Shown: positions 548 through 60,448, counted from the first letter of the stretch. The stretch is DNA of 64,000 nt from an uncultured Candidatus Saccharibacteria bacterium (GCA_964553015.1 CAZKJE010000002.1:14175-78174); one strand, 5' to 3'. The notes: a model not told the origin generated them from the sequence alone. Made by a program: numbers and translations.

Positions 548-2140
548 GTGGCTTTTGCCAAAATATACTCAGCGCAAGTAAATTTACTTACCGGAGCTAT
601 CGTAACTATAGAAGTGGATCTCTCCCGAGGCCTGCATTCTTTTAGTGTCGTCGGCCTGCCGGACAAAGCAGTCGATGAATCTAAAGACAGGGTATCGGGC
701 GCGATAAAGAATTCCGGTTTCCAGTCCCCGAAGGCAAAAAATCAAAAAATAATTGTTTCTCTTTCACCGGCCGACTTAAAGAAAGAGGGGCCATTTTTTG
801 ATTTAGGAATTGCCATCTCGTACATGAAAGCAGCGGGAGATATTAAATTTGATTCCGAGAAAAAAATATTTTTAGGCGAGCTAGGCTTGGACGGCACACT
901 TCGCCCTATCCGCGGAGCTTTGCCTTTGGCGCAGGAAGCCAGACGGAAAGGATTTGAAGAAATATATCTGCCGAAAGAAAATGCCTCCGAGGCGGCCTTG
1001 GTGGAAGGTATTAAAATTTTTGGCGCTGAAAGTTTGCAGGAAGTCGTGGAGCATATCGATGAGTATAAAAGACCCCCTCTGTCCGATAAAAATAGGACAT
1101 CTCCCCCTTCGCAGGGGGCGAGGAATAAAATTCCGGTCCAGCCGCAGACAAAAGTAAATTACAAAAAAGAAACAAAGGGCGCAGACTTTTCTGATATTCG
1201 CGGACAGGAAGGCGCCAAGCGCGGGCTCGAGATCGCGGCCGCCGGCGGGCATAATATAGCGATGTATGGCCCGCCCGGCACAGGCAAGACGATGCTGGCC
1301 CGGGCTTTTTCGCAATTGTTGCCGGATCTGCCAATTGATGAAGTACTTGAGCTCACGGGAATACATTCTGTGTCCGGCAGCACGCAAGGGGAGCTTGTGT
1401 GCTTTCCCCCGTTTCGCGCCCCGCACCACACTTCTTCTTATGTTTCTATTATCGGCGGGGGAACGTATCCAAAGCCAGGAGAGGTTACACTCGCGCATCG
1501 CGGCGTTTTATTTCTAGACGAGTTTCCGGAATTTGAGAAGAGGGTTATAGAATCTTTACGGCAGCCGCTTGAAGACAATATCGTTTCCATTTCCCGCGCC
1601 AAGGGCACAGCAGTCTTCCCTTCAAATTTTATTTTAGTGGCCGCCATGAATCCCTGCCCGTGCGGAAACGCTGGGAACAAACAAAAGGCCTGCATCTGCA
1701 AGCCGTCCGATTTAGACAGATATAAAAGGAAACTTTCCGGTCCGATTATAGACCGTATTGACCTCTGGGTTTCAGTCGGCAACGTGGATTATAAAAAACT
1801 CGGCGCAAGTGACGATGAGCGGAACGCAGAGAAAAGTGAAAAAATAAAAGATAGAGTTACCCTAGCCAGAGAAATTCAAAAAAAGAGATTTCAAAAATTT
1901 ACAAAAAAAATCAGCACAAACAGTGAAATGAATGTGAAAGACTTAGGCACGATGGCAAAACTCGATGCAAAAGTTCGCGAACTCTTAGACAACAGTGCCG
2001 AAAATCTAGGCCTGTCCGCTCGCGCCTATCACCGCGTAATAAAAATAGCCCGCACTATTGCCGACTTGGAAAATTCTGAAAACGTAGAAGCGAATCATAT
2101 CTTAGAGGCCATTCAATATAGGCCAAAAGTTAACTCATAG
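548..2140 (+). CDS. comM: YifB/ComM-family Mg-chelatase-like AAA+ ATPase
   Basis: 530 aa. Walker A GPPGTGKT, Walker B LFLDEFPEF, and a ChlI-like C-terminal region ending ANHILEAIQYR. GTG start. Contains a GC-rich palindromic insert at 1101..1122. Confidence 0.85.
   Translation: MAFAKIYSAQVNLLTGAIVTIEVDLSRGLHSFSVVGLPDKAVDESKDRVSGAIKNSGFQSPKAKNQKIIVSLSPADLKKEGPFFDLGIAISYMKAAGDIKFDSEKKIFLGELGLDGTLRPIRGALPLAQEARRKGFEEIYLPKENASEAALVEGIKIFGAESLQEVVEHIDEYKRPPLSDKNRTSPPSQGARNKIPVQPQTKVNYKKETKGADFSDIRGQEGAKRGLEIAAAGGHNIAMYGPPGTGKTMLARAFSQLLPDLPIDEVLELTGIHSVSGSTQGELVCFPPFRAPHHTSSYVSIIGGGTYPKPGEVTLAHRGVLFLDEFPEFEKRVIESLRQPLEDNIVSISRAKGTAVFPSNFILVAAMNPCPCGNAGNKQKACICKPSDLDRYKRKLSGPIIDRIDLWVSVGNVDYKKLGASDDERNAEKSEKIKDRVTLAREIQKKRFQKFTKKISTNSEMNVKDLGTMAKLDAKVRELLDNSAENLGLSARAYHRVIKIARTIADLENSENVEANHILEAIQYRPKVNS
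1101..1122. repeat. GC-rich palindromic element, in frame in comM
   Basis: CTCCCCC-TTCGCA-GGGGGCGAG. The CCCCC/GGGGG stem and TTCGCA loop match the recG copy at 49493..49514. Encodes SPPSQGA. Confidence 0.6.
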
Positions 2141-3120: not shown

Positions 3121-3166
3121 TTTCCTAATTTCTCTCGAGAGAACCCCACTTGGCGGGGCAGGAATA

Positions 3167-27158: not shown

Positions 27159-28439
27159 ATGAAAAAAGATTTCAAAAAAATTAATAATCAGTCCCTGCCT
27201 GCCGGCCGGCAGGGCGGAGCAGCGATGCTGATAGCCGTAGTTTTTTTTCTGTTTATTTCTTTAGCAATAATTTCCGGCCTCGTGTCGCCGTCTGTGCGCG
27301 AATTCAAAAATGCCAATGATGCGGTCAGATCGAGACAAAGTTTATTTTTGTCCGAATCGGGAACAGAGGACGCCTATTTTAGATTGAAAAATGCAAAAAC
27401 TATAAGCTCTCCGGTGGTGCTGGTTTTAAACGGTAATACTGCGACAACCACTATCACAGATTCCGGATATAACGAAAAAACTGTAACGGCGCTTGGAGAT
27501 GTTTCAGCGCGGCAGAGAAAAAGTGAAATTGTTCTGACCACGGGCGACGGGGTTTCTTTCAGCTATGGTATCCAGTCAGGGGTCGGCGGATTTGTTATAG
27601 GTAACGCTGTCGTGAATGGTAATGTATATTCAAACGGAAATATCACAGGGGCTAATGGCGCTACTATTACCGGTTCGGCTTTTGCCGCCGGAGCGACGGG
27701 GGTTATTGATAATATAGATGTGGGACAGGGAGGCATAGGGGACATAAAAGCGCATACTGTGAATGATTCTACTGCTGCCGGCAATTTATATTGCCAAGTT
27801 GGCTCGAACAATAATAAATCCTGCAATACATCTCAGGCTGATCCGGAAATAGCGCCGATGCCAATCACGGAAGAGATGATTAATAAATGGAAAGCAGATG
27901 CAGAACTTGGCGGAATTTTTACTGGAAACATGATTATATCCGAGCAGACGAGCCTAGGGCCGAAAAAAATTACAGGCAATTTGTCTATTGAGGCTGATGT
28001 AGTTATTACGGGTACTGTTTATGTAACAGGGAATATTACGACTAATAACGGCGCAGAGGTTTCTTTGAGCAGTTCTTATGGGGCTCTCGGCGGAATTATT
28101 GTTGCTGACGGAAGAGTAACTCTTTCCAATAACGTTAAATTTTTTGGATCTGGCACTGCAGGCACATACATATTATTAGTCACTACAAGCGCGTGCCCGA
28201 CGGACTGTTCAGGCTTGAATGCTCTGGAAATTTTAAACAACGTAGGCGCAATACTGGTGAATGCTCAAAATGGCACGGTGCACCTCAACAATAATGTTAC
28301 CCTGAACGAAGTTGTGGGAAATACAATTATTGTAGACAATAGCGCGGTGATAAATTATCTTTCGGGGCTTGCTAACCAAAATTTTTCTTCCGGACCTTCG
28401 GGAGGATGGAACATTGATAGCTGGAAGGAGGTGGAATAA
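27159..28439 (+). CDS. PilX-N-like pilus-associated protein with a G/N-rich beta-helix-like C-region
   Basis: 426 aa. GGAAMLIAVVFFLFISLAIISGLV resembles a PilX N-terminal anchor. It is followed by repetitive GN..NGN.. segments. Carries a GC palindrome at 27198..27213. Confidence 0.55.
   Translation: MKKDFKKINNQSLPAGRQGGAAMLIAVVFFLFISLAIISGLVSPSVREFKNANDAVRSRQSLFLSESGTEDAYFRLKNAKTISSPVVLVLNGNTATTTITDSGYNEKTVTALGDVSARQRKSEIVLTTGDGVSFSYGIQSGVGGFVIGNAVVNGNVYSNGNITGANGATITGSAFAAGATGVIDNIDVGQGGIGDIKAHTVNDSTAAGNLYCQVGSNNNKSCNTSQADPEIAPMPITEEMINKWKADAELGGIFTGNMIISEQTSLGPKKITGNLSIEADVVITGTVYVTGNITTNNGAEVSLSSSYGALGGIIVADGRVTLSNNVKFFGSGTAGTYILLVTTSACPTDCSGLNALEILNNVGAILVNAQNGTVHLNNNVTLNEVVGNTIIVDNSAVINYLSGLANQNFSSGPSGGWNIDSWKEVE
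27198..27213. repeat. Perfect 16-bp GC palindrome near the 5' end of the PilX-like gene
   Basis: CCTGCCGGCCGGCAGG, encoding LPAGRQG just before the membrane anchor. Confidence 0.55.
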
Positions 28440-29229: not shown

Positions 29230-30350
29230 AGTCTGCAAAAAATTTAAAAGGAAAAACAATACTCCTGCGGGTAGATTTTAATGTGCCGGTTAAGGATGGC
29301 AGAGTTCAGGATGACTTCAGAATCGCTAGAGCGCTCCCCACCATAAAATTTTTGCAGAAAAAAGGAGCGAAAATAATTTTAATCACCCACTTGGGCAGAG
29401 GCGGGGATACGCTTCTGCCCGTTCATAAAGTTTTAAATAAATATCTAAAAACAAAATTTATTCCCAAAATTCTTGGGCCGGAAGTTTCGGCTGCAATTTC
29501 AGGCATGAAAAATGGAGATGTGATTTTACTTGAAAATTTACGCAATAACACAGGCGAAAAAGAGTGCAGTAAAATTTTCGCTCTTGAGTTGTCAGAACTA
29601 GCTGAAATGTATGTGAATGAAGCTTTTCCCGTTTCCCACAGAGGAGACGCTTCAATTGTTCTATTGCCCAAAATATTACCTGCGTATGCAGGACTCCAGC
29701 TTGAAGAAGAAGTAAAAAATCTGTCTCACGCCTTGAAAAAGCCCAAGCATCCGTTTTTGTTTATCTTGGGCGGCGCAAAATTTTCAACTAAAATGCCGTT
29801 AATCAAAAAATACCTAAAACTTGCTGACCATGTTTTTATCGGCGGAGCTTTGGCAAATGACTTTTTGAAAGCTAAAGGCTATGAAATAGGGCAGTCTCTG
29901 GTAAGCGACACAAGTTTTGAAATTGCAGAAATTTTAAAAAGTAAACTTGCCCGCCATGGCGGAAAATTAATAATACCCTCCGATTTTTTGGTAAAATCCG
30001 GCGACAAGCTGATTAATAAAAAAGCTGATCAGGTAAAAAGCGATGAAATTATTTTAGATATTGGAAAAGAAACGATAGAAAATCTTGCCCCCCTGATTAA
30101 AAAGTCAAAACTTATTTTATGGAACGGACCACTGGGCAAATATGAAGATGGCGGCGCACAAGGCACAAAAGAAATACTAAAAATCACTGCAGCATCAAAA
30201 GCTGAGACAATCATAGGCGGAGGAGACACGGTCGCTTTAATTTCTGAAATGAAATTAGAAAAAAAGTTTTCCTTTGTTTCTACAGGGGGAGGCGCTACGC
30301 TGGATTTTCTTGCAAACGGAACCTTGCCGGGAATCAAAGCGCTTCTATAA
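29208..30350 (+). CDS. pgk: Phosphoglycerate kinase
   Basis: 380 aa. RVDFNVP N-terminal motif, GGGDT, STGGGA. Overlaps the tpiA end by 22 nt. Confidence 0.95.
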   Translation: MRNIKSLKSAKNLKGKTILLRVDFNVPVKDGRVQDDFRIARALPTIKFLQKKGAKIILITHLGRGGDTLLPVHKVLNKYLKTKFIPKILGPEVSAAISGMKNGDVILLENLRNNTGEKECSKIFALELSELAEMYVNEAFPVSHRGDASIVLLPKILPAYAGLQLEEEVKNLSHALKKPKHPFLFILGGAKFSTKMPLIKKYLKLADHVFIGGALANDFLKAKGYEIGQSLVSDTSFEIAEILKSKLARHGGKLIIPSDFLVKSGDKLINKKADQVKSDEIILDIGKETIENLAPLIKKSKLILWNGPLGKYEDGGAQGTKEILKITAASKAETIIGGGDTVALISEMKLEKKFSFVSTGGGATLDFLANGTLPGIKALL

Positions 30351-32390: not shown

Positions 32391-32882
32391 GTGACAGAGA
32401 AAACTATTAAAATTTATACTGACGGTTCAGCCAGAGGAAATCCGGGAAAAGCAGGCTGGGGAGCTGTTTTTCTTTTAGGCGATAAAGTTTTTGAAATGGG
32501 CGGGCGGTCCGATCACGCGACAAATAATCAGATGGAGCTCACTGCGCCAATAGAAGCGCTTAAATATTTAAAAAAATCCCCTAGGCAAGGTCTAGGGGAA
32601 AAAATTACACAGGGGAGTTCTGTGCAAATCGTGTCTGACTCAAAGTATGTTATTTTAGGTATTACCGAGTGGATCTTAAACTGGCAGAAAAATAATTGGC
32701 GAAATGCCGCAAAAAAGCCTGTTATGAATCGAGAACTTTGGGAAGAGCTGTACAAGCTTACGGAAGAATTAAAAACAACATGGGAATATGTAAAAGGCCA
32801 CAACGGCGACAAATATAATGACCGAGCAGATGAAATAGCGACAAGCTTTGCAGACAATGAGCCAGTGGAGTTGAAAAAATAA
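32391..32882 (+). CDS. rnhA: Ribonuclease HI
   Basis: 163 aa, GTG start. DGSARGNPG, NNQMEL, SDSKYV, KGHNGDKYNDRADEIA. Contains an in-frame palindrome at 32578..32598. Confidence 0.9.
   Translation: MTEKTIKIYTDGSARGNPGKAGWGAVFLLGDKVFEMGGRSDHATNNQMELTAPIEALKYLKKSPRQGLGEKITQGSSVQIVSDSKYVILGITEWILNWQKNNWRNAAKKPVMNRELWEELYKLTEELKTTWEYVKGHNGDKYNDRADEIATSFADNEPVELKK
32578..32598. repeat. GC-rich palindromic element, in frame in rnhA
   Basis: CCCCTAG-GCAAGGT-CTAGGGG (perfect 7-bp stem) encoding SPRQGLG. The ALK-to-VQIVSDS spacing is about 15 aa longer than in E. coli RNase HI as recalled from memory. Confidence 0.65.
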
Positions 32883-32890
32883 ATATTTCA

Positions 32891-34456
32891 ATGCAAGATA
32901 AAATTTTTCATACGGTTTGTTTTGGATTTTTATTCGGAGTGCTGTTGCGCTCCTTCTTTTTTATAAGTATATATTTTTCGCTATTAGCCGGAATTATAAC
33001 GCTCGCTTTAATTTTATTTTTTACTCTTATATCCTTCGGCCATAGCCCTACCCTCGGGCGTAGTCCTACGGGCGAGCCGGGTGAGGCAAAAAGCAAATGG
33101 GGAGTTCTGATATCTGTTTTTATTTTTGCCTTTAGTTTTGGAGTTTTTAGATTTGGTCTTGCAGATGTGCCAAATCCTGTCGCCTTTGAATCTCAAGTAG
33201 GCGAAAAAATAACTCTCTCTGGGGAAATTGTAGATGAGTCCAGTATTAGAGAAAATAATCAGCAATTGATTATCGAAACAGAAAAAGAAGCGAGTATAGA
33301 TAGTAAGACAGGAATTTTATTATCAGTAAGTTTGAGTGAGAGTTATAAATACGGTGATAAGATAAATTTTACAGGAACTCTGAAAAAACCGGAAAATTTT
33401 ATCACGGATACCGGCAAAGAGTTTGATTATATAAATTATCTGCGCAAGGACGGCATTTTATACGTCATGAGTTATCCCAAAGTTGAAATTATTTCGCGCG
33501 GCAATGGTAATTTAATAAAAAAATATTTATTTCTCATAAAAGAAAAATTTCTAAATAAAGTGAATTTAGTTATAGCAAGTCCGGAAAATTTATTAATGGG
33601 TGGATTGATCTTGGGGGAGAAATCATCTTTTAGCAAAGATCTCCGGCAGGATTTCGTAGACACCGGCACGATACACATCGTCGCTCTGTCTGGCTACAAT
33701 ATCACCATAGTCGCTGAATGGTTTATGAAACTTTTCGCTCAACTGCCATACCTGTCTAAAAATTTTGGCATAGGCATGGGTGTTTTTGCTATTATATTAT
33801 TTATTTTGATGACGGGCGGAAGTTCGACGGCAGTCCGCGCCGGCATTATGGCAACTCTCGCTCTCGTGGCTAGGGCGACGGGAAGAAATTATGATGTGGC
33901 GCGGGCATTAATTCTTGCCGGAGTCGGCATGATACTTATTAATCCATTTATTTTAGCCTTTGATGTTTCTTTCGAACTTTCTTTTATCGCAACCGTTGCC
34001 GTGATATTCCTAGCGCCAAGAATAGAAAAATATTTTCTATGGGTCACCGAAAGTTTTGGCCTGCGGGACATAGTGTCTGTAACTTGTGCTGCATACATTT
34101 TTGTCTTCCCTTTTATTCTATACAAAATGGGCAATTTATCTCTCGTAGCTCTGCCGGCAAACATTTTAATACTTCCCTTTATTCCGTTTACTATGATGCT
34201 TGGATTTCTGACTGGTATCGCCGGTCTTGTTTTGCCGATATTGTCCCTGCCCATTGGCTATATATCTTATCTTTTTTTACATTATGAGCTATGGGTTATT
34301 AAATTTTTTGCAAATTTGCCGTTTGCGTCATTTTCTTTTCCGAATTTCCCGCTTTTCCTCACTTTGCTAATTTATGCCTATTTTGTCTACTATCTTTTCG
34401 GCAGAAATATAAAAGATTTTTTTAATATGGATAAAGACGAAATAGAAATATTGTAA
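32891..34456 (+). CDS. comEC: ComEC/Rec2 DNA-uptake channel, membrane part
   Basis: 521 aa polytopic protein. DUF4131-like N-part and a Competence domain (TGTIHIVALSGYNITIV). Contains an imperfect GC palindrome at 33053..33076. Confidence 0.8.
   Translation: MQDKIFHTVCFGFLFGVLLRSFFFISIYFSLLAGIITLALILFFTLISFGHSPTLGRSPTGEPGEAKSKWGVLISVFIFAFSFGVFRFGLADVPNPVAFESQVGEKITLSGEIVDESSIRENNQQLIIETEKEASIDSKTGILLSVSLSESYKYGDKINFTGTLKKPENFITDTGKEFDYINYLRKDGILYVMSYPKVEIISRGNGNLIKKYLFLIKEKFLNKVNLVIASPENLLMGGLILGEKSSFSKDLRQDFVDTGTIHIVALSGYNITIVAEWFMKLFAQLPYLSKNFGIGMGVFAIILFILMTGGSSTAVRAGIMATLALVARATGRNYDVARALILAGVGMILINPFILAFDVSFELSFIATVAVIFLAPRIEKYFLWVTESFGLRDIVSVTCAAYIFVFPFILYKMGNLSLVALPANILILPFIPFTMMLGFLTGIAGLVLPILSLPIGYISYLFLHYELWVIKFFANLPFASFSFPNFPLFLTLLIYAYFVYYLFGRNIKDFFNMDKDEIEIL
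33053..33076. repeat. GC-rich imperfect palindrome, in frame in comEC
   Basis: CTCGGGCGTAG-tc-CTACGGGCGAG (9 of 11 positions pair), within the peptide HSPTLGRSPTGEPGEA between TM segments. Confidence 0.5.
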
Positions 34457-39070: not shown

Positions 39071-39145
39071 TTGATATTAGTAGCAAAATAGACTTATGAA
39101 ACTACAAGAAGGATAATAGCGTAACTAAACCATAAAGTCAATTTG

Positions 39146-39535
39146 TGGAGATGGGGGAAATTGAATCCCCGTGCAGAAGGTTTTTGCAAAGAAGTCTACA
39201 TGCGTAGCGCGCTTTTTGTTTTAAATTAAAAAATTATGAAACGCGCCAAATATTTTTTAACCGAGTTCTTTTGTTTTGCGAGAGCGTCAGAACAGGCGTT
39301 CAAGCTATCCCGATAATGTTATGCCTCGTCTTATATATCGGAAGTCTATAAGAGAGACACCACCTCAGGCTTACGCGAAAGATGGAGCGAAAGCGAGCGC
39401 ATTACCGAAGTAAGGCGAACGCATTGCTGTGAAAGCTGATTTTGCAATTAGCTGTTGAACGAATTTTTACGAGATTACGTTCATTCTCGGCATGCATCAA
39501 TAACAAATGGCCAACTGTCTATGCCTTGCATCCCC
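39146..39535 (-). ncRNA. ssrA: tmRNA (SsrA)
   Basis: The 5' GGGGATG pairs with the 3' CATCTCC, including the G3:U pair. T-arm GGGGA-TTCAATT-TCCCC, discriminator A, and CCA not encoded. Immediately downstream of smpB. The candidate tag frame ends ...GNALAFAPSFA-TAA, but the resume codon was not determined. Confidence 0.85.
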
Positions 39536-40713: not shown

Positions 40714-40852
40714 ATTCCCCTCTTGAGGGGTGGCTCGCGTGCAAGACGGGGTGGATAATTTACCTCACCCTGCTGCCCTCTCCTGTAAAGGGGAGGGGAA
40801 AATTCATCCACCTCCCTCCGACCCATGTCGGAGTACTCCTCAAGAGGAGAAT
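40714..40852. mobile_element. MITE-like GC-rich element with terminal inverted repeats
   Basis: The left end ATTCCCCTCTTGAGGGGT and the reverse complement of the right end (ATTCTCCTCTTGAGGAGT) match at 16 of 18 positions. T-runs flank the element. The interior holds further hairpins (CCCTCTCC-TGTAAA-GGGGAGGG and CTCCGAC-CCAT-GTCGGAG). It is non-coding. Confidence 0.5.
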
Positions 40853-43323: not shown

Positions 43324-43998
43324 ATGGCGAGAAAACAAGATAAACAAAGCGTTTTGGCTATGCGCAAGAGAGGAATGAGCTACAGCCAGATCAAAGGGAA
43401 AATAAAAATAAGCAAAAGCACTTTGAGTGTCTGGCTTAAAGATTTACCACTCGATGAAAAACGGATAAGAGAATTAAGAGACAATAGCCCTATTCGTATT
43501 GAAAAATTCAGAAATACAATGCGAGCAAAAAAAGAGATGAGACTTTATGAGGTATATAAAAAAGTCGCAAATGATATTTGTGATCTCTCAAAAAGAGATT
43601 TATTTTTAACAGGCTTGTTCTTATATTGGGGAGAAGGCACGAAATCACAAAATTCTTTAGTTGCCCTCACAAATACAAATCCAGCCATGGTTAAGTTTTT
43701 CATACAATGGCTAAAATTGTTTGGAGTAAAAAGCAAAGATTTGAAAATTAAACTACATTTATACTCCGATATGAAAATTAAAGAAAGTCTTGATTTTTGG
43801 TCAAAAGAGCTTAATATTCCGATAAGCCAGTTTTATAAGCCGTATGTTAAGAAAAATACTCTCAAATCTATCTCGTATAAAAATGGCTTTGGAAAAGGAA
43901 CATGTAGTGTTATATTTGGGAGTAGAGATCTTTGGGAATATATAACAATGGGATTGAAATATATTTCTGAAATTAGTAATGAAAATTTCCGCCCCTAG
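43324..43998 (+). CDS. HTH plus LAGLIDADG-like (homing-endonuclease-like) protein
   Basis: 224 aa. N-terminal resolvase-type HTH (RGMSYSQIKGKIKISKSTLSVWLK). A single LAGLIDADG-like motif (LTGLFLYWGEGTK). The last 10 nt, including the TAG stop, lie inside the tRNA gene. Confidence 0.45.
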   Translation: MARKQDKQSVLAMRKRGMSYSQIKGKIKISKSTLSVWLKDLPLDEKRIRELRDNSPIRIEKFRNTMRAKKEMRLYEVYKKVANDICDLSKRDLFLTGLFLYWGEGTKSQNSLVALTNTNPAMVKFFIQWLKLFGVKSKDLKIKLHLYSDMKIKESLDFWSKELNIPISQFYKPYVKKNTLKSISYKNGFGKGTCSVIFGSRDLWEYITMGLKYISEISNENFRP

Positions 43999-44061
43999 CT
44001 CAGTTGGTAGAGCAATCCGCTTATACCGGATCGGTCCTTGGTTCGAGTCCAAGGGGGCGGA
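43989..44061 (+). tRNA. tRNA-Ile with anticodon UAU
   Basis: Cloverleaf read by hand: acceptor CCGCCCC/GGGGCGG, D-arm GCTC-AGTTGGTA-GAGC, anticodon arm ATCCG-CTTATAC-CGGAT, variable loop CGGTC, T-arm CTTGG-TTCGAGT-CCAAG, discriminator A. CCA is not encoded. Confidence 0.8.
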
Positions 44062-44063
44062 CA

Positions 44064-47749: not shown

Positions 47750-49957
47750 TTACTCGAAGTGAAACTCTCCGGCTTTGGTGCGGACTTTTTGTTTTAGGAG
47801 AGGATATTTACTTAGTTCGGGGTCAGATTCTATCATGCTAATAGCTTCAGTTCTAGCCGCTTCTACCATTTTTATATTTTTTATAGCTTCCATGCCGAGA
47901 TCAGTGATGCCCCACTGCTTTGTACCGCCAAGCTCTCCGGCGCCTCGGAGTGTGAGATCTAGCTCTGCCAATTCAAAACCATTTTTTGCAGTCTTGAGCG
48001 CTTTAAGGCGGTCTACGGTTTTTGCGCTTTTGGCTTCAGCAAAAATATAACAATATGCCTGATGCGAACTTCGGATCACCCGTCCGCGGAGCTGATGCAA
48101 TTGGGCCAATCCAAAACGCTCCGCACCTTCTATGATAATTATTGTCGCATTTGGAACATTCACTCCGACTTCTACCACGGACGTAGCGCATAAGATATGT
48201 ATCTTGCCTTCGGTAAATTCCTGCATTACCTCTTCTTTTTTTTCTCTGCTCATCTTGGAATGAAGTACGCCTATTTCATACTCTTTGAACACTCGCTCTT
48301 TTAATATTTTAGCTTCAGCTACGGCAGATTTTACATTTAAAGCCATTTCTTTTTCAGGATCAGGCTCAAAAATTCGCGGGCAGATGACGTAGAGCTGTCT
48401 ACCGGCCTCCAATTCTTTTCTGATTGCTTCGTAAGTGTTAGTCCTCTTGTCCGGAGTAATAATCTCTGTAATTATTTGTTTTCTTCCTACCGGCATTTCG
48501 TCTAAAAGCGACAGATCCAAATCTCCGTATATCGTGAGCGCGAGCGTGCGGGGGATAGGAGTTGCGGTCATGGATAGCAGGTGCGGAGCGATGTTATCTT
48601 TGCGCACTAACTTTCTTCTTTGTGCTGTGCCGAAGCGATGCTGTTCGTCTATCACCACAAGTGCAAGATTTTTAAATTTAACAGTTTTTTGAATGAGCGC
48701 ATGTGTACCGATAAGTATAGGTATCTCGCCGTTTCCGATCCATTTCAAAAGTTGTGCTCGGGAAATTGTTGTCCAGCTTGCCCCGTCCTTGGCGGGACCG
48801 ATTGTTTTTGATGGAAATTTTCTGCAGCCACTTCCAGTGATCAAGCCTATGTTTATCGGCAAATGCTTGAAATATTCTATGAAAGATTCAAAATGTTGCG
48901 TTGCTAATATTTCTGTCGGCGCCATGTATGCCACTTGCAAATTACCAAAATTTTGTGGTTTACCCTGGGTGTAATCGAAGGGCCTTTGCTGTACTGTCAC
49001 ATAGCTTGCAGTCGCAGCTACAGCAGTTTTACCGGAGCCGACATCGCCTTCGAGTAATCGCGACATCGGAAAATTCTTTGCCAGATCAGCAAGTATCGTT
49101 GCGATGGATTTTTCTTGTGATTTTGTCGGTTTAAAAGGGAAGCGCTTCAGAAATTCTTCTGCACTTTTCTTTTCAGGTTTTATTTGAAAAGATTTATTTT
49201 TTCTATATTCAAATTTATCATGCTGGCGTTCCAGCTGAATACAGAATACTTCTTCAAAAGCGAATCGTTTGCGTGCCGACTGCGCATCGGCTTTATTTTT
49301 CGGTTTGTGTATCCAAATAAGCGCGGTTTTCAGAGTAGGCAAATGATATTTTTTTAAAATTTCGGCCGGAATATAATCTTCAATATTATCCAAAGTTTTT
49401 TCTTTAAATATTTTTTCAATTGCGTGGTAAAACCATTTGGAAGTGATACCTCGCGTCTCCGCATAAATTGGATAAGACAGACCCTCCCCCAACCCCTCCC
49501 TTCGCAGGGCGGGGCTTTTAAATAATGTGTCGTGCGAATCTATCGGCATATTCGGCAATTTTTCAAATTCCGGATTAGCAAGATACATGCCATTTTTGCC
49601 TTGCGTGACTTTGCCCGTCAGCTTCACATTTTCGCCGTCATGGATCATTTTTGCCAAGTAAGTCTGATTGAACCATGTGATTTTTATTTTTCCAGATAAA
49701 TCTTCTATTTCGCCTTCGCCCATGGGCATTTTTGAACGAAATCCTTTTTTGGTTTTCAATTTTGAAACTTTGCCATATACAGTAGCCATATCTCCGGCAA
49801 CTAATTCAGCAATATTCTTTACCTCGCTGATATCGCTGTAGCGGACAGGGAAGTGAAACAAGAGATCAGCCACAGAAAAAATCTTGAGCTTATGCAAAGC
49901 CCTTTTCTGGCTTTCATCCAGCCTGAATTTTAGTTCAAGCTTATCGCTTAAATTCAT
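47750..49957 (-). CDS. recG: ATP-dependent DNA helicase RecG
   Basis: Start moved to ATG 49957, because the track extension overlaps the pilin gene. Wedge domain and helicase motifs GDVGSGKT and VIDEQHRFG. Contains an in-frame GC element at 49481..49516. Confidence 0.9.
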   Translation of the reverse strand: MNLSDKLELKFRLDESQKRALHKLKIFSVADLLFHFPVRYSDISEVKNIAELVAGDMATVYGKVSKLKTKKGFRSKMPMGEGEIEDLSGKIKITWFNQTYLAKMIHDGENVKLTGKVTQGKNGMYLANPEFEKLPNMPIDSHDTLFKSPALRREGLGEGLSYPIYAETRGITSKWFYHAIEKIFKEKTLDNIEDYIPAEILKKYHLPTLKTALIWIHKPKNKADAQSARKRFAFEEVFCIQLERQHDKFEYRKNKSFQIKPEKKSAEEFLKRFPFKPTKSQEKSIATILADLAKNFPMSRLLEGDVGSGKTAVAATASYVTVQQRPFDYTQGKPQNFGNLQVAYMAPTEILATQHFESFIEYFKHLPINIGLITGSGCRKFPSKTIGPAKDGASWTTISRAQLLKWIGNGEIPILIGTHALIQKTVKFKNLALVVIDEQHRFGTAQRRKLVRKDNIAPHLLSMTATPIPRTLALTIYGDLDLSLLDEMPVGRKQIITEIITPDKRTNTYEAIRKELEAGRQLYVICPRIFEPDPEKEMALNVKSAVAEAKILKERVFKEYEIGVLHSKMSREKKEEVMQEFTEGKIHILCATSVVEVGVNVPNATIIIIEGAERFGLAQLHQLRGRVIRSSHQAYCYIFAEAKSAKTVDRLKALKTAKNGFELAELDLTLRGAGELGGTKQWGITDLGMEAIKNIKMVEAARTEAISMIESDPELSKYPLLKQKVRTKAGEFHFE
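49481..49516. repeat. GC-rich palindromic element, in frame in recG, opposite orientation to the carB copy
   Basis: CCCCTCCC-TTCGCA-GGGCGGGG (49493..49514) with a CCCTCCCCCAA leader. Read on the minus strand as SPALRREGLGEGL. Confidence 0.7.
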
Positions 49958-50562: not shown

Positions 50563-51273
50563 ATGGCAAAAAAGTCAAAACGAGGTAAACTCATAGTCAT
50601 AGATGGCACGGACGGCAGCGGAAAAGCGACACAGATAGGCCTCCTCATAAAACATCTAAAAAAAGACGGCAAAAAAGTAAAGCTTGTCGATTTTCCGGAA
50701 TACTATTCAAACTTTTTTGGCGCATTCATAGGGCATTGTCTTTCCGAGCAATATTATAATTTCGTAAAAGTGCATCCCAAAATTGCTTCCGTGCTTTACG
50801 CCGCAGACCGCTTTGAATCAAAAGATAAAATACAAAAATGGCTAGCAGAGGGAAACATCGTAATTGCAAACAGGTACGCGAGCGCGAATCAGATCCATCA
50901 GGGCGGAAAGATTGCTAATACACAAAAAAGAGAAAATTTTTTAAAATGGCTTGCCGAGATGGAGTACGAGGTCTTTAAAATTCCAAGGCCGGATGCAGTT
51001 TTTTATTTAAGCGTGCCGATCCCGATAGTTATGAAGCTGATAAAAGAAAGAAATAAGGAAAGTAGGCGCGCCTACCTCGGCAAGAAAAAAGATGTGGTGG
51101 AAAAAGATAAAAATTATATGGAAAATTCCAGAAAAAGCGCACTCTGGCTCGCCAAGACCCAGAGGGGCTGGATAAAAATTGAATGCCTAAAAAATAGCGA
51201 ACTAGAAAGCCGTGAAGTTATTCACGATAAGATTTATGAAAAAGTTAAAAATATTTTGCTTGCCCGTCCATAG
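50563..51273 (+). CDS. tmk: Thymidylate kinase
   Basis: 236 aa. P-loop IVIDGTDGSGKATQ and a DRF/DRY-type motif (AADRFES). Confidence 0.9.
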   Translation: MAKKSKRGKLIVIDGTDGSGKATQIGLLIKHLKKDGKKVKLVDFPEYYSNFFGAFIGHCLSEQYYNFVKVHPKIASVLYAADRFESKDKIQKWLAEGNIVIANRYASANQIHQGGKIANTQKRENFLKWLAEMEYEVFKIPRPDAVFYLSVPIPIVMKLIKERNKESRRAYLGKKKDVVEKDKNYMENSRKSALWLAKTQRGWIKIECLKNSELESREVIHDKIYEKVKNILLARP

Positions 51274-51299
51274 CTTTAGCGAAGGAGGGGAATAAACCA

Positions 51300-56947: not shown

Positions 56948-59900
56948 ATGCAGAAGCATGAAAACAATAACTCCAAATCAGAAGCAGCTTTGCGCGAAGA
57001 GCGAGTTTTGGAATTTTGGAAAGAAAATAAGATATTTAAAAAGTCGCTGGAGAAAAAATCCCCAAAGGGAGAATTTGTGTTTTATGATGGTCCAGTTACG
57101 GCAAACTCAAAGCCAGTTTTGCATACAATGCTACCTTTTTCTTTCAAAGATGTTATTCCCAGATATAAAACTATGCGCGGATATCATGTACGAAGGAAAG
57201 GCGGTTGGGATACGCATGGGCTTCCGGTAGAACTGCAAATAGAAAAAAAACTTGGGTTCAATTCAAAAGCAGATATTGAAAATTATGGTATTGCAGCTTT
57301 CAATAAATTATGTAAGGACAGTGTTTGGGAGTACGTTGGGGCATGGAAAAGTTTTACCGAACGAATGGGCTACTGGGCAGATCAAGATAATGCATATGTC
57401 ACATATTATAATAATTATATTGAATCTGTTTGGAATATAGTAAAAAAAATAAATGAGCAGAATCTGCTTTATAAAGATTACAAAGTGGTGCCGTGGTGCC
57501 CGAGGTGCGGTACAGCACTGTCTTCGCATGAGCTCGCACAGGGATACGAAGATGTAAAAGATCTGTCAGTGTATGTAAAGTTTAAGATAACTACGCCAGT
57601 GCAGGAAAATTCTGCCGCTTTACCCGCAAGCGGGCTCCGACACGGACAAAATTTTCCCGCATTGGCTCCGCAGTATATCCTCGCCTGGACGACGACGCCG
57701 TGGACCCTGCCCGGGAACGTTGCCTTAGCCGTCGGCGAAAATATTGATTATGTAAAGGTAAAGAGTGGAGAAGAGTTTTATATTCTCGCCAAAGAGAAGC
57801 TTTCAATCATAACCGAACCATATGAGATAGTGGAAGAGGTCAAGGGCGCGGGGCTAGTAGGGCTCGAATACGAGCCGTTGTATCCATATCTTGCAAATAC
57901 GGTTTCGGATACAGAAAAACCAAAATTAGAAAAGGCATACAAGGTGCACAAGGCAAACTTTGTGACCACAGATGACGGCACCGGCGTGGTGCATACGGCT
58001 GTGATGTATGGGCAAGATGACTTTATGCTCGGAACAGAAGTCGGCCTGCCGAAGCACCACCTCGTAGGTCTCGATGGCAAATTTTTAGCAGGCACAGGTA
58101 TTTTTGAAGGACGATTTGTAAAAGATGAAGAAGTCGCCGTAGATATCATTAAAGACTTGGCGCACCGCGGGCTTCTTTTCAAAAAAGAAAAATACGAGCA
58201 CTCGTATCCGCACTGCTGGCGCTGTAAAACTCCGCTCATATATTACGCGCGGGATTCTTGGTATATCCGGATGTCTGATCCTAGAATAAAAGCCGAAATG
58301 ATAAAGGAGAATAAAGAAATAAACTGGGAGCCGGAGCATATTCGCGACGGGCGGTTTGGGCAGTGGCTGGAAGAAATAAAAGACTGGGCAATATCCCGCG
58401 AACGGTACTGGGGCACGCCGCTGCCGGTCTGGGCCTGCGAAGCGTGTAAAAAAATTGAAGTAGTAGGAAGCGTAGAAGATCTAAAAAGTAGAACCAAAAA
58501 GTCTGGCAATAAATATTTTGTGATGCGGCACGGCGAGGCTGTCGATAACGCCAAGCATTTGGGTGATCCGAAAGGCGATCCAAATAATCACCTGACTGAT
58601 AAAGGGAAAAAAGAAATAATTCTTACCGCAGAAGAATTAAAAAATAAAAAAATTGATTTTATCTTTACGTCTTCTTTTCTGCGAACCAAAGAAACAGCAG
58701 AGGTCTTGAGAAAAGAACTAGGTTTGGAGCAAGAAAAAGTAATAGTTGAAGATAGATTGCATGAACACAATGAGGGAGACACTAAGCTCGTTCGCAAAAG
58801 GATGGCCGACTTTATTTATGAAATAGAAAAAAATTACGAAAATAAAAATATCTTAATAATTTCGCACGGAAATCCTATCTGGATCCTGCAGAAAACCGCT
58901 TTGGGCTTGTCTATAAATAATTTTACAGAAGGCGAGATGCTGCATACCGGCGAAGTCAAAGAATTAGATTTTATACCGCTACCGCATAATGAAAATTATG
59001 AGCTTGATCTGCACAAGCCTTATATAGATGAAATAAATCTTGTTTGTTCATGTGGTGGAAAATTAACACGCACGAAAGAAGTCATGGACGTGTGGTTTGA
59101 TTCGGGAGGCATGTCTTTTGCGCAGGATCATTACCCTTTCGATAACGCTTCCGGTAAATCTTTTGACGGCAAAGAACTTTTATATCCGGCGGATTTTATT
59201 TCAGAGGGCATAGATCAGACGCGCGGATGGTTTTACACCTTGCATGCTGTTGGAATTCTCTTGGGGCGGGGCAAGGCTTACAAAAACGTAATCTGCCTTG
59301 GCCATCTTCTCGACGCTAAGGGCAAAAAAATGTCCAAATCTCTCGGCAACGTCGTCGAGCCGTTTCTTGCGATGGATACATATGGCGTGGATACTTTGCG
59401 TTTGTGGATGTATTCCATAAATCAGCCGGGCGAATCCAAGAATTTTGATGAGAAAACAGTAGCGCTTCTTTCTCAGCAGATTTTTGGCTTGCTTTACAAT
59501 GTGCTTGCGTTTTATGAACTTTATCGCGATGTTTCGCTAGAGCCTAGAGCCTATGGCCTAAAGCCCAGCAATATTTTAGATAAATGGATCTTGGCGCGTC
59601 TAGATGAGTTGACAGAGCTTGCAACCAAAAATTTAGATAACTACAAATTGCTGGAGCCAGTGCGGGGCATGAGAGACTTTATCGGCGATCTTTCTACTTG
59701 GTATTTGCGCCGTTCGCGCGACAGGATAAAATCCTCCTCCGCACAAGGCTCCGGTGGAACAAGGGAAGGAGATGAAGCGAAGGAAACTCTGTACTATGTG
59801 CTAAAAACCTTGGCAAAACTCATGGCTCCGCTCGCGCCGTTTGCCGCTGAAGACATCTGGCTTAAGTTAAAAAATGAAGATGATGAAGAAAGCGTGCATT

Positions 59901-60448
59901 TGGCGAGCTGGCCGGAAGTAAAAAAGACATCTTTTATCTCCAAGTTGCTTAAAAATGATCCAAGCAAAAAAATAATTGAAAATATGGAGAGCGTCAGAAG
60001 AGTAGTCACACTCGGACTCGAAGCTCGACAGAAAACCGGAATAAAAGTCCGCCAGCCTCTTAATCAATTACGAATTAAAAATTACGAATTAGGAATTGAG
60101 TATGCAGACTTGATTAGAGAAGAGCTGAATGTCAGAGAAGTTATTTTTGATAATTCTATTGAAGGCGAGGTGTGGCTCGATATAAGAATAAACGAAGAGC
60201 TCAAAGCTGAAGGGGATTACAGGGAGTTTGTCCGCGCGCTGCAGGATATGAGAAAGAAAACCGGACTGACGCCGAGCGACGTGGTCTCTGTTACTTTTGA
60301 AACAAACAAAGCAGGCAAGGAACTTATTAAAAAATTCGAAGCTGAAATGAAAAAAACAGTGCTTGTCTCTACGATAGAATTTTCGGAAAATGAAGGAGAA
60401 AAAATAAAAATCGACAATCTTCACTTCAGGATAAAAATTGATAAATAA
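56948..60448 (+). CDS. ileS: Isoleucine--tRNA ligase with a nested histidine-phosphatase domain
   Basis: 1166 aa. IleRS hallmarks: WDTHGLPVE, editing-domain [10 protein letters not shown] and [13 protein letters not shown], KMSKS. An extra domain of about 163 aa lies at residues 522-684. Confidence 0.9.
   Translation: [1166 protein letters not shown]
58511..58999 (+). other. Histidine-phosphatase (PGAM-like) domain inserted within ileS
   Basis: Ordered motifs [43 protein letters not shown] and LIISHGNPI. Flanked by IleRS CxxC (ACEACKK) and CxC (VCSCGG) segments. Confidence 0.75.

Follow-up and report, generated by a model that had tools for sequence, protein, structure and literature searches.

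Ultra-short G+C-rich palindromes inserted in frame in comM, comEC and a pilus-operon gene of a candidate phyla radiation bacterium

Three short G+C-rich palindromes were analysed in a 64-kb stretch of bacterial DNA (GCA_964553015.1, CAZKJE010000002.1:14175-78174; here called the window), where they lie within comM, comEC and a pilus-operon gene referred to as PilX-like. They are in-frame, lineage-specific insertions of 11 codons in comM, seven in the PilX-like gene and 18 in comEC. In Candidatus Nomurabacteria, a lineage of the candidate phyla radiation (CPR, or Patescibacteria), genes and intergenic regions alike are populated by families of G+C-rich palindromic repeats that are very short (18-36 nt). 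These families cross gene and species boundaries, and the three window sites are indel-tolerant loops that are indel hotspots across Nomurabacteria. We consider it probable that the palindromes are independent, lineage-specific insertions of non-autonomous elements of three families, similar to repetitive extragenic palindromes (REPs) and Rickettsia palindromic elements (RPEs), and filtered by selection.

The analysis covered the window and fragments of about 20 kb from approximately 160 relatives, and about 400 orthologues were compared across the three genes. By its ComM homologues, the window is assigned to Candidatus Nomurabacteria/Paceibacterota, a CPR lineage. An earlier description of the window, here called the sequence-only reading, had given the coordinates and sequences of the three sites, which match exactly, and their translations SPPSQGA (comM), LPAGRQG (PilX-like) and HSPTLGRSPTGEPGEA (comEC), which are correct. 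Its names for comM (548-2140; Pfam ChlI, Mg_chelatase and Mg_chelatase_C) and comEC (32891-34456; Pfam DUF4131 and Competence) are confirmed by domain matches. The third open reading frame (ORF; 27159-28439) has no family match in Pfam or NCBIfam, so 'PilX-like' reflects only its context, that is, its N-terminal hydrophobic segment and its operon position after PilB, PilC and three minor-pilin-like genes. The sites are indeed islands of G+C (71-88%, against about 38-45% in the host regions), although 'AT-rich' overstates the case for genes of a window with 41.6% G+C.

Hairpin strength alone leaves the comEC and comM palindromes within the reach of chance, so the decisive test is the comparison of orthologues. 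The closest relative for all three genes, compared as protein only, is apparently a single JGI contig of 156,499 nt, and it carries none of the three insertions; presence/absence polymorphism between related genomes exists. At all three sites the added residues form in-frame filler rich in P, G, R, S and Q, and the sites are true linkers or loops, as had been proposed. The simplest reading is that the segments, being in frame and free of stops, would be translated as such.

The 120 ComM homologues compared are 81-91% identical to the window protein and diverge sharply only between EVVEHI(D/N) and QPxTK(V/I)NY. The corresponding linker DNA of 80 further loci is distributed among 68 distinct alleles of 39-117 nt. 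Over these alleles, longer linkers tend to have a higher G+C content (rho 0.68, p = 1.5e-10) and a lower hairpin z-score (rho -0.55, p = 1e-6): linkers of at most 51 nt have a mean of 27.5% GC and -2.2 kcal/mol, and those of at least 60 nt a mean of 41% GC and -19.4 kcal/mol. What the longer comM linkers add is thus G+C-rich DNA that is self-complementary and comes in many unrelated kinds. Besides the window type, these include CCCGAC..GTCGGG hairpins, GGACCGTCC..GGACGGTCC and a 36-mer whose translation is PARNA(S/T)HS(D/V)AGG. In the window, the palindrome cited earlier, CTCCCCCTTCGCAGGGGGCGAG (1101-1122), belongs to a hairpin that is found with a perfect 10-bp stem in two other loci (L081 and L082); beside it, the linker has a C-rich arm standing alone at 1073-1080 and, at 1080-1099, a small A+T hairpin. 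Aligned with the solved ComM structure 8rxd, the cassette corresponds to gaps (+10, +6 and +4 residues) in the linker that joins the N-terminal domain to the AAA+ module. An AlphaFold2 model of ComM was too poor to serve as evidence of linker disorder (mean predicted local distance difference test score 50.7), and this alignment was used in its place. In a neighbour-joining tree built with the linker masked, the window-type cassette is scattered among lineages, and a cassette-free protein (P0003) is sister to that of the window.

In the PilX-like gene, the perfect 16-mer CCTGCCGGCCGGCAGG (27198-27213) is part of an element whose single difference from the canonical 20-mer (A to C) is synonymous (AGG to CGG). 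The seven additional codons occupy 27195-27215, in an N-terminus whose usual or ancestral form is ..K(I/V)NNQS-GAAMLI... Six of about 105 orthologues with complete N-termini have an insert at this point. Three of them carry the identical peptide at just 52-53% overall identity, and the other three are decayed (LPADRQS, FANRQG and PPSMRQG). The insert is missing from the approximately 50 nearest orthologues (66-80% identity).

The comEC palindrome CTCGGGCGTAG-tc-CTACGGGCGAG, with nine of 11 positions paired, is the inner of two 27-nt copies, a nesting that the sequence-only reading had missed. The outer unit is split into TTCGGCCATAGCCCTAC and GGGTGAGGCA (33035-33051 and 33079-33088) by the inner unit CCTCGGGCGTAGTCCTACGGGCGAGCC (33052-33078). 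The loop that connects hydrophobic helices two and three reads LIS-KNKW, with no insert, in about 60 of 80 species. A single 27-nt unit, CTCGG(C/T)CATAG-NN-CTA(T/C)GGGCGAGGCA, is present in the comEC of L006 and L022; other species have, at the same codon or four codons downstream, CCCCGTCGCT-TGCG-AGCGACGGGG, the 36-mer CCTGCCCGCAATGCTACGCATAGCGTTGCAGGCGGG or the 18-mer CCTGTCTGCGCAGGCAGG. Nesting is also seen in the comEC loop of L007 (10157-10230), where a 36-mer (halves CCTGCCCGCAATGCTACG and CATAGCGTTGCAGGCGGG) contains a second 36-nt relative exactly at its dyad; the uninterrupted form of this 36-mer is found in L025 (10157-10192). Among 120 further ComEC homologues, about 22 have an insert at the window site, one of them (P0258) the same nested double, and the nearest (P0242, 78% identity) has none. 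Examples of peptides that would span the insertion junctions are NNQSLPAGRQGGAAML and ISFGHSPTLGR. The deposited ComEC of the source contig (P0241), at 503 aa, is shorter than the 521-aa ORF that begins with MQDKIF; the longer start is probably right, because all orthologues begin M(Q/R)D(K/R)(I/V)F.

The three sites had been taken for further copies of one element. They represent instead three unrelated sequence families, each with members elsewhere. Family F1 (comM) has the core CCCTTSGCAGGG, which is also found in recG (exact), carB (one mismatch) and pyrB (exact, not an insertion). There are three exact copies and one near copy of the F1 core CCCTTCGCAGGG in the window, against 0.18 expected, and by this core the kinship proposed with carB and recG holds for comM; it does not extend to the PilX-like gene and comEC, which belong to the other families. 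As read from the sequences, carB and recG also have an upstream C-rich arm in common. Family F2 (PilX-like), with the unit CCTGCCTGCCGGCAGGCAGG, is found as its 20-mer in four unrelated genes, and its occurrences include genes of 585 and 166 aa and a short ORF or intergenic site. Family F3 (comEC) has a 27-nt unit encoding LGHSPTGEA and is represented in proteins of 715, about 305 and about 600 aa and in the ComM of P0064; the 27-mer is 100% identical in the 715-aa protein (L139 and L140) and lies in reverse orientation in the ~600-aa protein, where it reads LA(H/R)GATAEG. Two additional families, a 36-mer and a 30-mer, are represented by 100%-identical copies both in non-coding DNA and in genes that differ from one species to another. 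From the sequences, an A.C mismatch beside CTAC/ATAG is conserved in both F3 and the 36-mer family. Decayed family copies are common (for example in L019, L079, L043 and L059).

The F2 20-mer was also searched in IMG/VR, where 35 stretches were found; the scan is uninformative on origin, because the matches are mostly in high-GC phage contigs unrelated to CPR. On one of these contigs (L192, 499-550) the 20-mer lies exactly between GGTAGCTCAGTTGGTA and GAGCGG, which resemble two tRNA D-arm halves; ARAGORN called no tRNA there, and a GIY-YIG-like ORF, recognized by eye in the translation, follows. A perfect 54-nt palindrome at the start of a metagenome contig (L090, 1-54) is more probably an artefact of assembly than an element.

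The ends of the copies are sharp, their flanks are unrelated except for being A-rich, and no target duplication is visible at junctions of filled and empty sites. Coding DNA is not avoided, since 143 of the 173 G+C-rich inverted repeats in 2.5 Mb lie inside ORFs of at least 100 aa. Among indels of 12-60 nt, the length is divisible by three for 63-72% of those in coding DNA, compared with about 35% of those in non-coding DNA (BLAST gap placement being noisy). No Rfam family overlaps the three sites.

Other hairpins and insertions of this type are present in the window, and their coordinates are given with those of the three sites in table 1. The identities of the genes in a companion finding, namely carB, tig, rnhA and recG, are borne out by Pfam. 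The loop with the rnhA insertion carries other palindromes in other species. An eighth affected gene, pgk, was absent from the sequence-only reading; its site reads PARGGG in L019 and PARRGG in L016. There is also a non-coding insertion hotspot at 3130-3165, where a G+C insert of 21 nt, CCCACTTGGCGGGGCAGGAAT, comes after the palindrome TTCTCTCGAGAGAA (3130-3143). In L105, L110, L150, L108, L097 and L088 this intergenic point is occupied by different hairpins ending in CAGG, and the inserts beside TTCTCTCGAGAGAA measure 19, 20 or 21 nt.

Table 1. Positions of the palindromic segments and their host regions in the window.
Feature	Position	Strand	Sequence	Remarks
comM inter-domain linker	1058..1138	+		81 nt; short A+T-rich alleles 39-51 nt
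comM hairpin, family F1	1100..1123	+	TCTCCCCCT-TCGC-AGGGGGCGAGG	encodes SPPSQGAR; spans 1101-1122
carB hairpin, F1 type	9425..9444	+	CCTCCCCT-TGGC-AGGGGAGG	six additional codons relative to orthologues; family of comM
PilX-like element, family F2	27194..27213	+	CCTGCCTGCCGGCCGGCAGG	one base from the perfect 20-mer CCTGCCTGCCGGCAGGCAGG
pgk in-frame G+C palindrome	29946..29963	+	CTTGCCCGCCATGGCGGA	18 nt; LARHGG; absent from most orthologues
rnhA hairpin	32577..32599	+	TCCCCTAG-GCAAGGT-CTAGGGGA	eight additional codons, SPRQGLGE
comEC insertion, TM2-TM3 loop	33035..33088	+		54 nt (18 codons); two nested F3 units
comEC palindrome cited earlier	33053..33076	+		core of the inner F3 copy
recG hairpin, F1 type	49493..49514	+	CCCCTCCCT-TCGC-AGGGCGGGG	gene on - strand; comM core

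Two further segments of the window look similar and are not insertions, so a palindrome alone is not diagnostic. At 12198-12209, CCCTTCGCAGGG encodes the conserved HPSQ active-site motif of pyrB (aspartate carbamoyltransferase) and was rejected as an element copy; its match to the F1 core is either coincidence or conversion. The strongest intragenic hairpin of the window, GGGCAGAGGCG-GGGATA-CGCTTCTGCCC in pgk (29393-29420; -23.7 kcal/mol in the 30-nt scan and -23.9 on the exact span), lies in the conserved peptide HLG(K/R)GGDTLLPV, and the hairpins of the orthologues are weaker. Here a K to R change in the window (AAA to AGA) is matched by TTG to CTG on the opposite arm, and synonymous resampling of the codon-aligned segment never reached -23.7.

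The density of such hairpins exceeds that of shuffled sequences. There are five perfect G+C-rich hairpins (stem of at least 8 bp, arm GC of at least 75%) in the window, against 0.43 expected from dinucleotide shuffles and 0.41 from 30-nt block shuffles, an enrichment of about 12-fold. When 30-nt folding windows are clustered, there are 14 clusters with -15.5 kcal/mol or less (2.3-3.5 expected), 43 with -12.5 or less (20-25 expected) and 98 with -11 or less (52-58 expected). By these counts the PilX-like site (-15.5 kcal/mol) is unusual, and the comM (-12.5) and comEC (-11.1) sites are unexceptional by energy. Folding energy was rejected as a sole test: comEC and comM fall where about half of the matches are due to chance, and the strongest coding hairpin is no insertion.

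Several observations weigh against insertion of mobile elements. The Pfam scans of about 50 window ORFs revealed no transposase, and tblastn with an IS200 TnpA sequence as query found no match in 2.5 Mb, a sample of about 2% of each genome. The flanks share no conserved target motif across copies beyond their A-richness. Strand bias relative to GC skew, which single-strand transposition would predict, was inconsistent, the orientation being mixed and confounded by orthologous copies. None of 15 near-identical contig pairs differs by a palindrome, and no recent movement was caught. The patchy, composite comM cassette would fit old ancestry with repeated loss, or recombination, just as well as transposition. 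Family F2 is a short low-complexity palindrome and, given its phage matches, may arise or be favoured independently. When synonymous codons were resampled, palindromy beyond the constraint of the peptide had P = 0.026 for comM, 0.033 for the PilX-like gene and 0.11 for comEC (0.0185 for carB and 0.0035 for rnhA). A DNA-level rather than peptide-level origin is thus only modestly supported; such values are expected, because a translated palindrome, with Pro opposite Gly, stays partly self-complementary under any codons.

A rival explanation is a local mutational origin that involves no transposition: palindromes would be created or perfected on the spot, in A-rich linkers prone to indels, through template switching or hairpin-primed repair, and natural transformation with homologous recombination would then carry them to the same locus in related genomes. 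The host organisms carry comEC, comM and type IV pilus genes, and the patchiness of both the comM cassette and the PilX-like insert among orthologues is what recombination would give. The same loops are struck repeatedly, neither transposase nor target duplication was found, and the strong hairpin in the conserved part of pgk seems to have been sharpened by point changes alone. We nevertheless regard this origin as unlikely. It would leave unexplained why units of 27-36 nt recur with 100% identity, in both orientations, in the intergenic DNA of different species and in genes that are not homologous, and why a complete foreign unit is present inside another. The inserts are, moreover, unrelated to their A+T-rich flanks.

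A selected function has still less in its favour and seems very improbable. According to this explanation, the hairpin, as mRNA or DNA, or the flexible peptide would be useful, for example in mRNA stabilization, in translational pausing between domains or as a site for a DNA-binding protein. Identical copies across species and the conserved A.C mismatch described above suggest sequence constraint, the segments lie between domains or helices, and REPs elsewhere have been proposed as RNA elements (PMC3733652). However, most orthologues, including those of the closest relative, lack the segments, many unrelated sequences fill the same loop, decayed copies are common, there is no Rfam match and no k-mer is over-represented in the manner of an uptake signal. 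Finally, it is scarcely credible that these are the ordinary short hairpins of any 64-kb sequence of like composition, noticed for their G+C: the comEC and comM energies and the pyrB and pgk look-alikes would allow it, but all three sites are indels relative to orthologues and have family members elsewhere, so that the orthologue alignments contradict it, as does the excess of perfect hairpins over shuffles.

If the palindromes are inserted elements, as we favour, new copies would be made from place to place and would land widely. Those within genes would survive only where the frame is kept, the frame read has no stops and the loop tolerates extra residues. Here the loops concerned would be the domain linker of ComM, the TM2-TM3 loop of ComEC and the PilX-like leader. 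Such a filter of frame, stops and loops would cause a small number of loops to recur as hotspots in different species. Once inserted, copies would decay by point mutation or be deleted, and copying combined with selection would account for the hotspots as well as for the coexistence of perfect and decayed copies. With low confidence, we suggest that hairpin DNA might be copied non-autonomously by a trans-acting enzyme, along the lines of REPs with their associated tyrosine transposases (RAYTs) or of IS200/IS605-type single-strand transposition.

More tentatively, the palindromes might constitute an undescribed super-family of ultra-short (18-36 nt) mobile elements in Nomurabacteria, perhaps in CPR bacteria generally, with neither REP tags nor a dedicated transposase. 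Their insertion would leave no target duplication and could also take place at or near the dyad of a copy already present. Conservation of their sequences across species would point to mobilization by a conserved host enzyme. Nomurabacteria genomes are, by estimate, about 90% coding, and the surviving families would for that reason be compatible with translation.

The elements of the window behave like intragenic REPs and RPEs and fail two defining REP features. In a few bacteria, REPs of 20-40 bp occur inside genes; these are G+C-rich stem-loops, GTAG- or CGTC-tagged, with several families per genome, and some are in frame, many in genes of DNA synthesis, replication or repair, plausibly in what the authors argue are flexible linkers or loops (Di Nocera et al. 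2013, PMC3733652). RPE-4 and RPE-6 of Rickettsia are among these intragenic REPs, and CGTC-type REPs have no known transposase (PMC3733652). The present units are alike in size (18-36 nt, with arms of 8-16 bp), in recurring as family members and in their in-frame positions. The first missing feature is the unpaired terminal GTAG or CGTC tag of REPs (PMC3733652): the ends here are CCTC.., CCTG.. and CCCG.., and CTAC/ATAG is restricted to positions adjoining the loop in F3 and the 36-mer family. A universal GTAG-like terminal tag was considered and rejected, since a CARG tail, although about fourfold enriched, marks only a sub-class (19 of 158 G+C-rich hairpins). The second is location, REPs being mainly extragenic, downstream of ORFs, whereas the present elements are as frequent in coding as in non-coding DNA. 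In addition, head-to-head dimers (REPINs) are not the rule here, copies being nested inside other copies instead, and the searches of window ORFs and relatives found no RAYT (a Y1 tyrosine transposase). The REP survey did not include CPR bacteria, to which the window host belongs (PMC3733652).

RPEs resemble the window insertions in being in frame, in belonging to a small, reduced genome and in adding peptides at surface or linker positions. They were reportedly described by Ogata et al. in 2000 as selfish palindromic repeats inserted in frame in genes that remain functional; similarly, comM, comEC and the PilX-like gene keep full-length ORFs, with complete Pfam domains where these are covered. 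RPEs are also summarized in PMC3733652 and PMC10969869. They are set apart by size, RPE-1 being about 100-150 bp and the window units 20-27 nt (54 nt when nested), and probably also by sequence; here, moreover, many families coexist and recur across species.

The G+C clusters of yeast mitochondria (PMC4478555) and the RHE of sponges (PMC2800124) are likewise short G+C-rich palindromes in compact, A+T-richer genomes, mobile without an encoded transposase, of several classes and occasionally within coding sequence. These elements differ in being organellar and eukaryotic and in their sequence classes. Some yeast mitochondrial G+C clusters have been described with target-site features; none are seen here. 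Transposition of IS200/IS605 as single strands involves hairpin recognition and no target duplication, in agreement with the sharp, duplication-free junctions. It takes place, however, 3' of a fixed tetra- or pentanucleotide and needs the Y1 enzyme TnpA, for which the A-rich flanks and the searches gave no counterpart. Miniature inverted-repeat transposable elements have terminal inverted repeats of 15-30 bp, a core of 70-300 bp and a target duplication; here the whole unit is the palindrome and no duplication is found. DNA uptake sequences, a single 9-12-mer at about one copy per kb, were also considered and rejected: no k-mer is abundant, and the top G+C-rich 12-mer has three copies in 64 kb. 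A full-text literature search, with incomplete journal coverage, found no description of such elements in CPR bacteria.

Some other features of the window were observed. C-rich/G-rich hairpins of the CCTCCCC..GGGGAGG type lie in intergenic DNA at 2207-2250, 40771-40832 and 51260-51290; the last holds the unit TTGCCCGTCCATAGCTTTAGCGAAGGAGGGG, which recurs in L004 at 15712. An isoleucyl-tRNA synthetase-like protein (56948-60448; class I synthetase and Anticodon_1 domains) has a histidine phosphatase domain (His_Phos_1) inserted at residues 524-611. A tmRNA is recognized by Rfam at 39143-39535 on the minus strand (119.6 bits), and ARAGORN reports none. At 43324-44062, a 224-aa ORF ends inside tRNA-Ile(TAT) (43989-44062) and weakly matches HTH_23 and HTH_28, domains common in transposase N-termini; no further sign of a mobile element was found in this region.

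If these palindromes are inserted elements, a considerable proportion of the unusual additional loops seen in CPR proteins would be footprints of selfish DNA and not adaptations, which would matter for annotation, structure prediction and alignment-based phylogeny of CPR lineages. Should the existence of a super-family be borne out, palindromes would be a main source of indel variation in the loops of essential proteins in minimal genomes. The ComM linker and the ComEC TM2-TM3, RNase H and PGK loops, struck independently dozens of times, form a natural test system in which rates of REP-like insertion, decay and loss could be measured, and which bears on the question of whether REP-like elements move without RAYT. 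The hotspots would also provide ready strain markers for Nomurabacteria in metagenomes.

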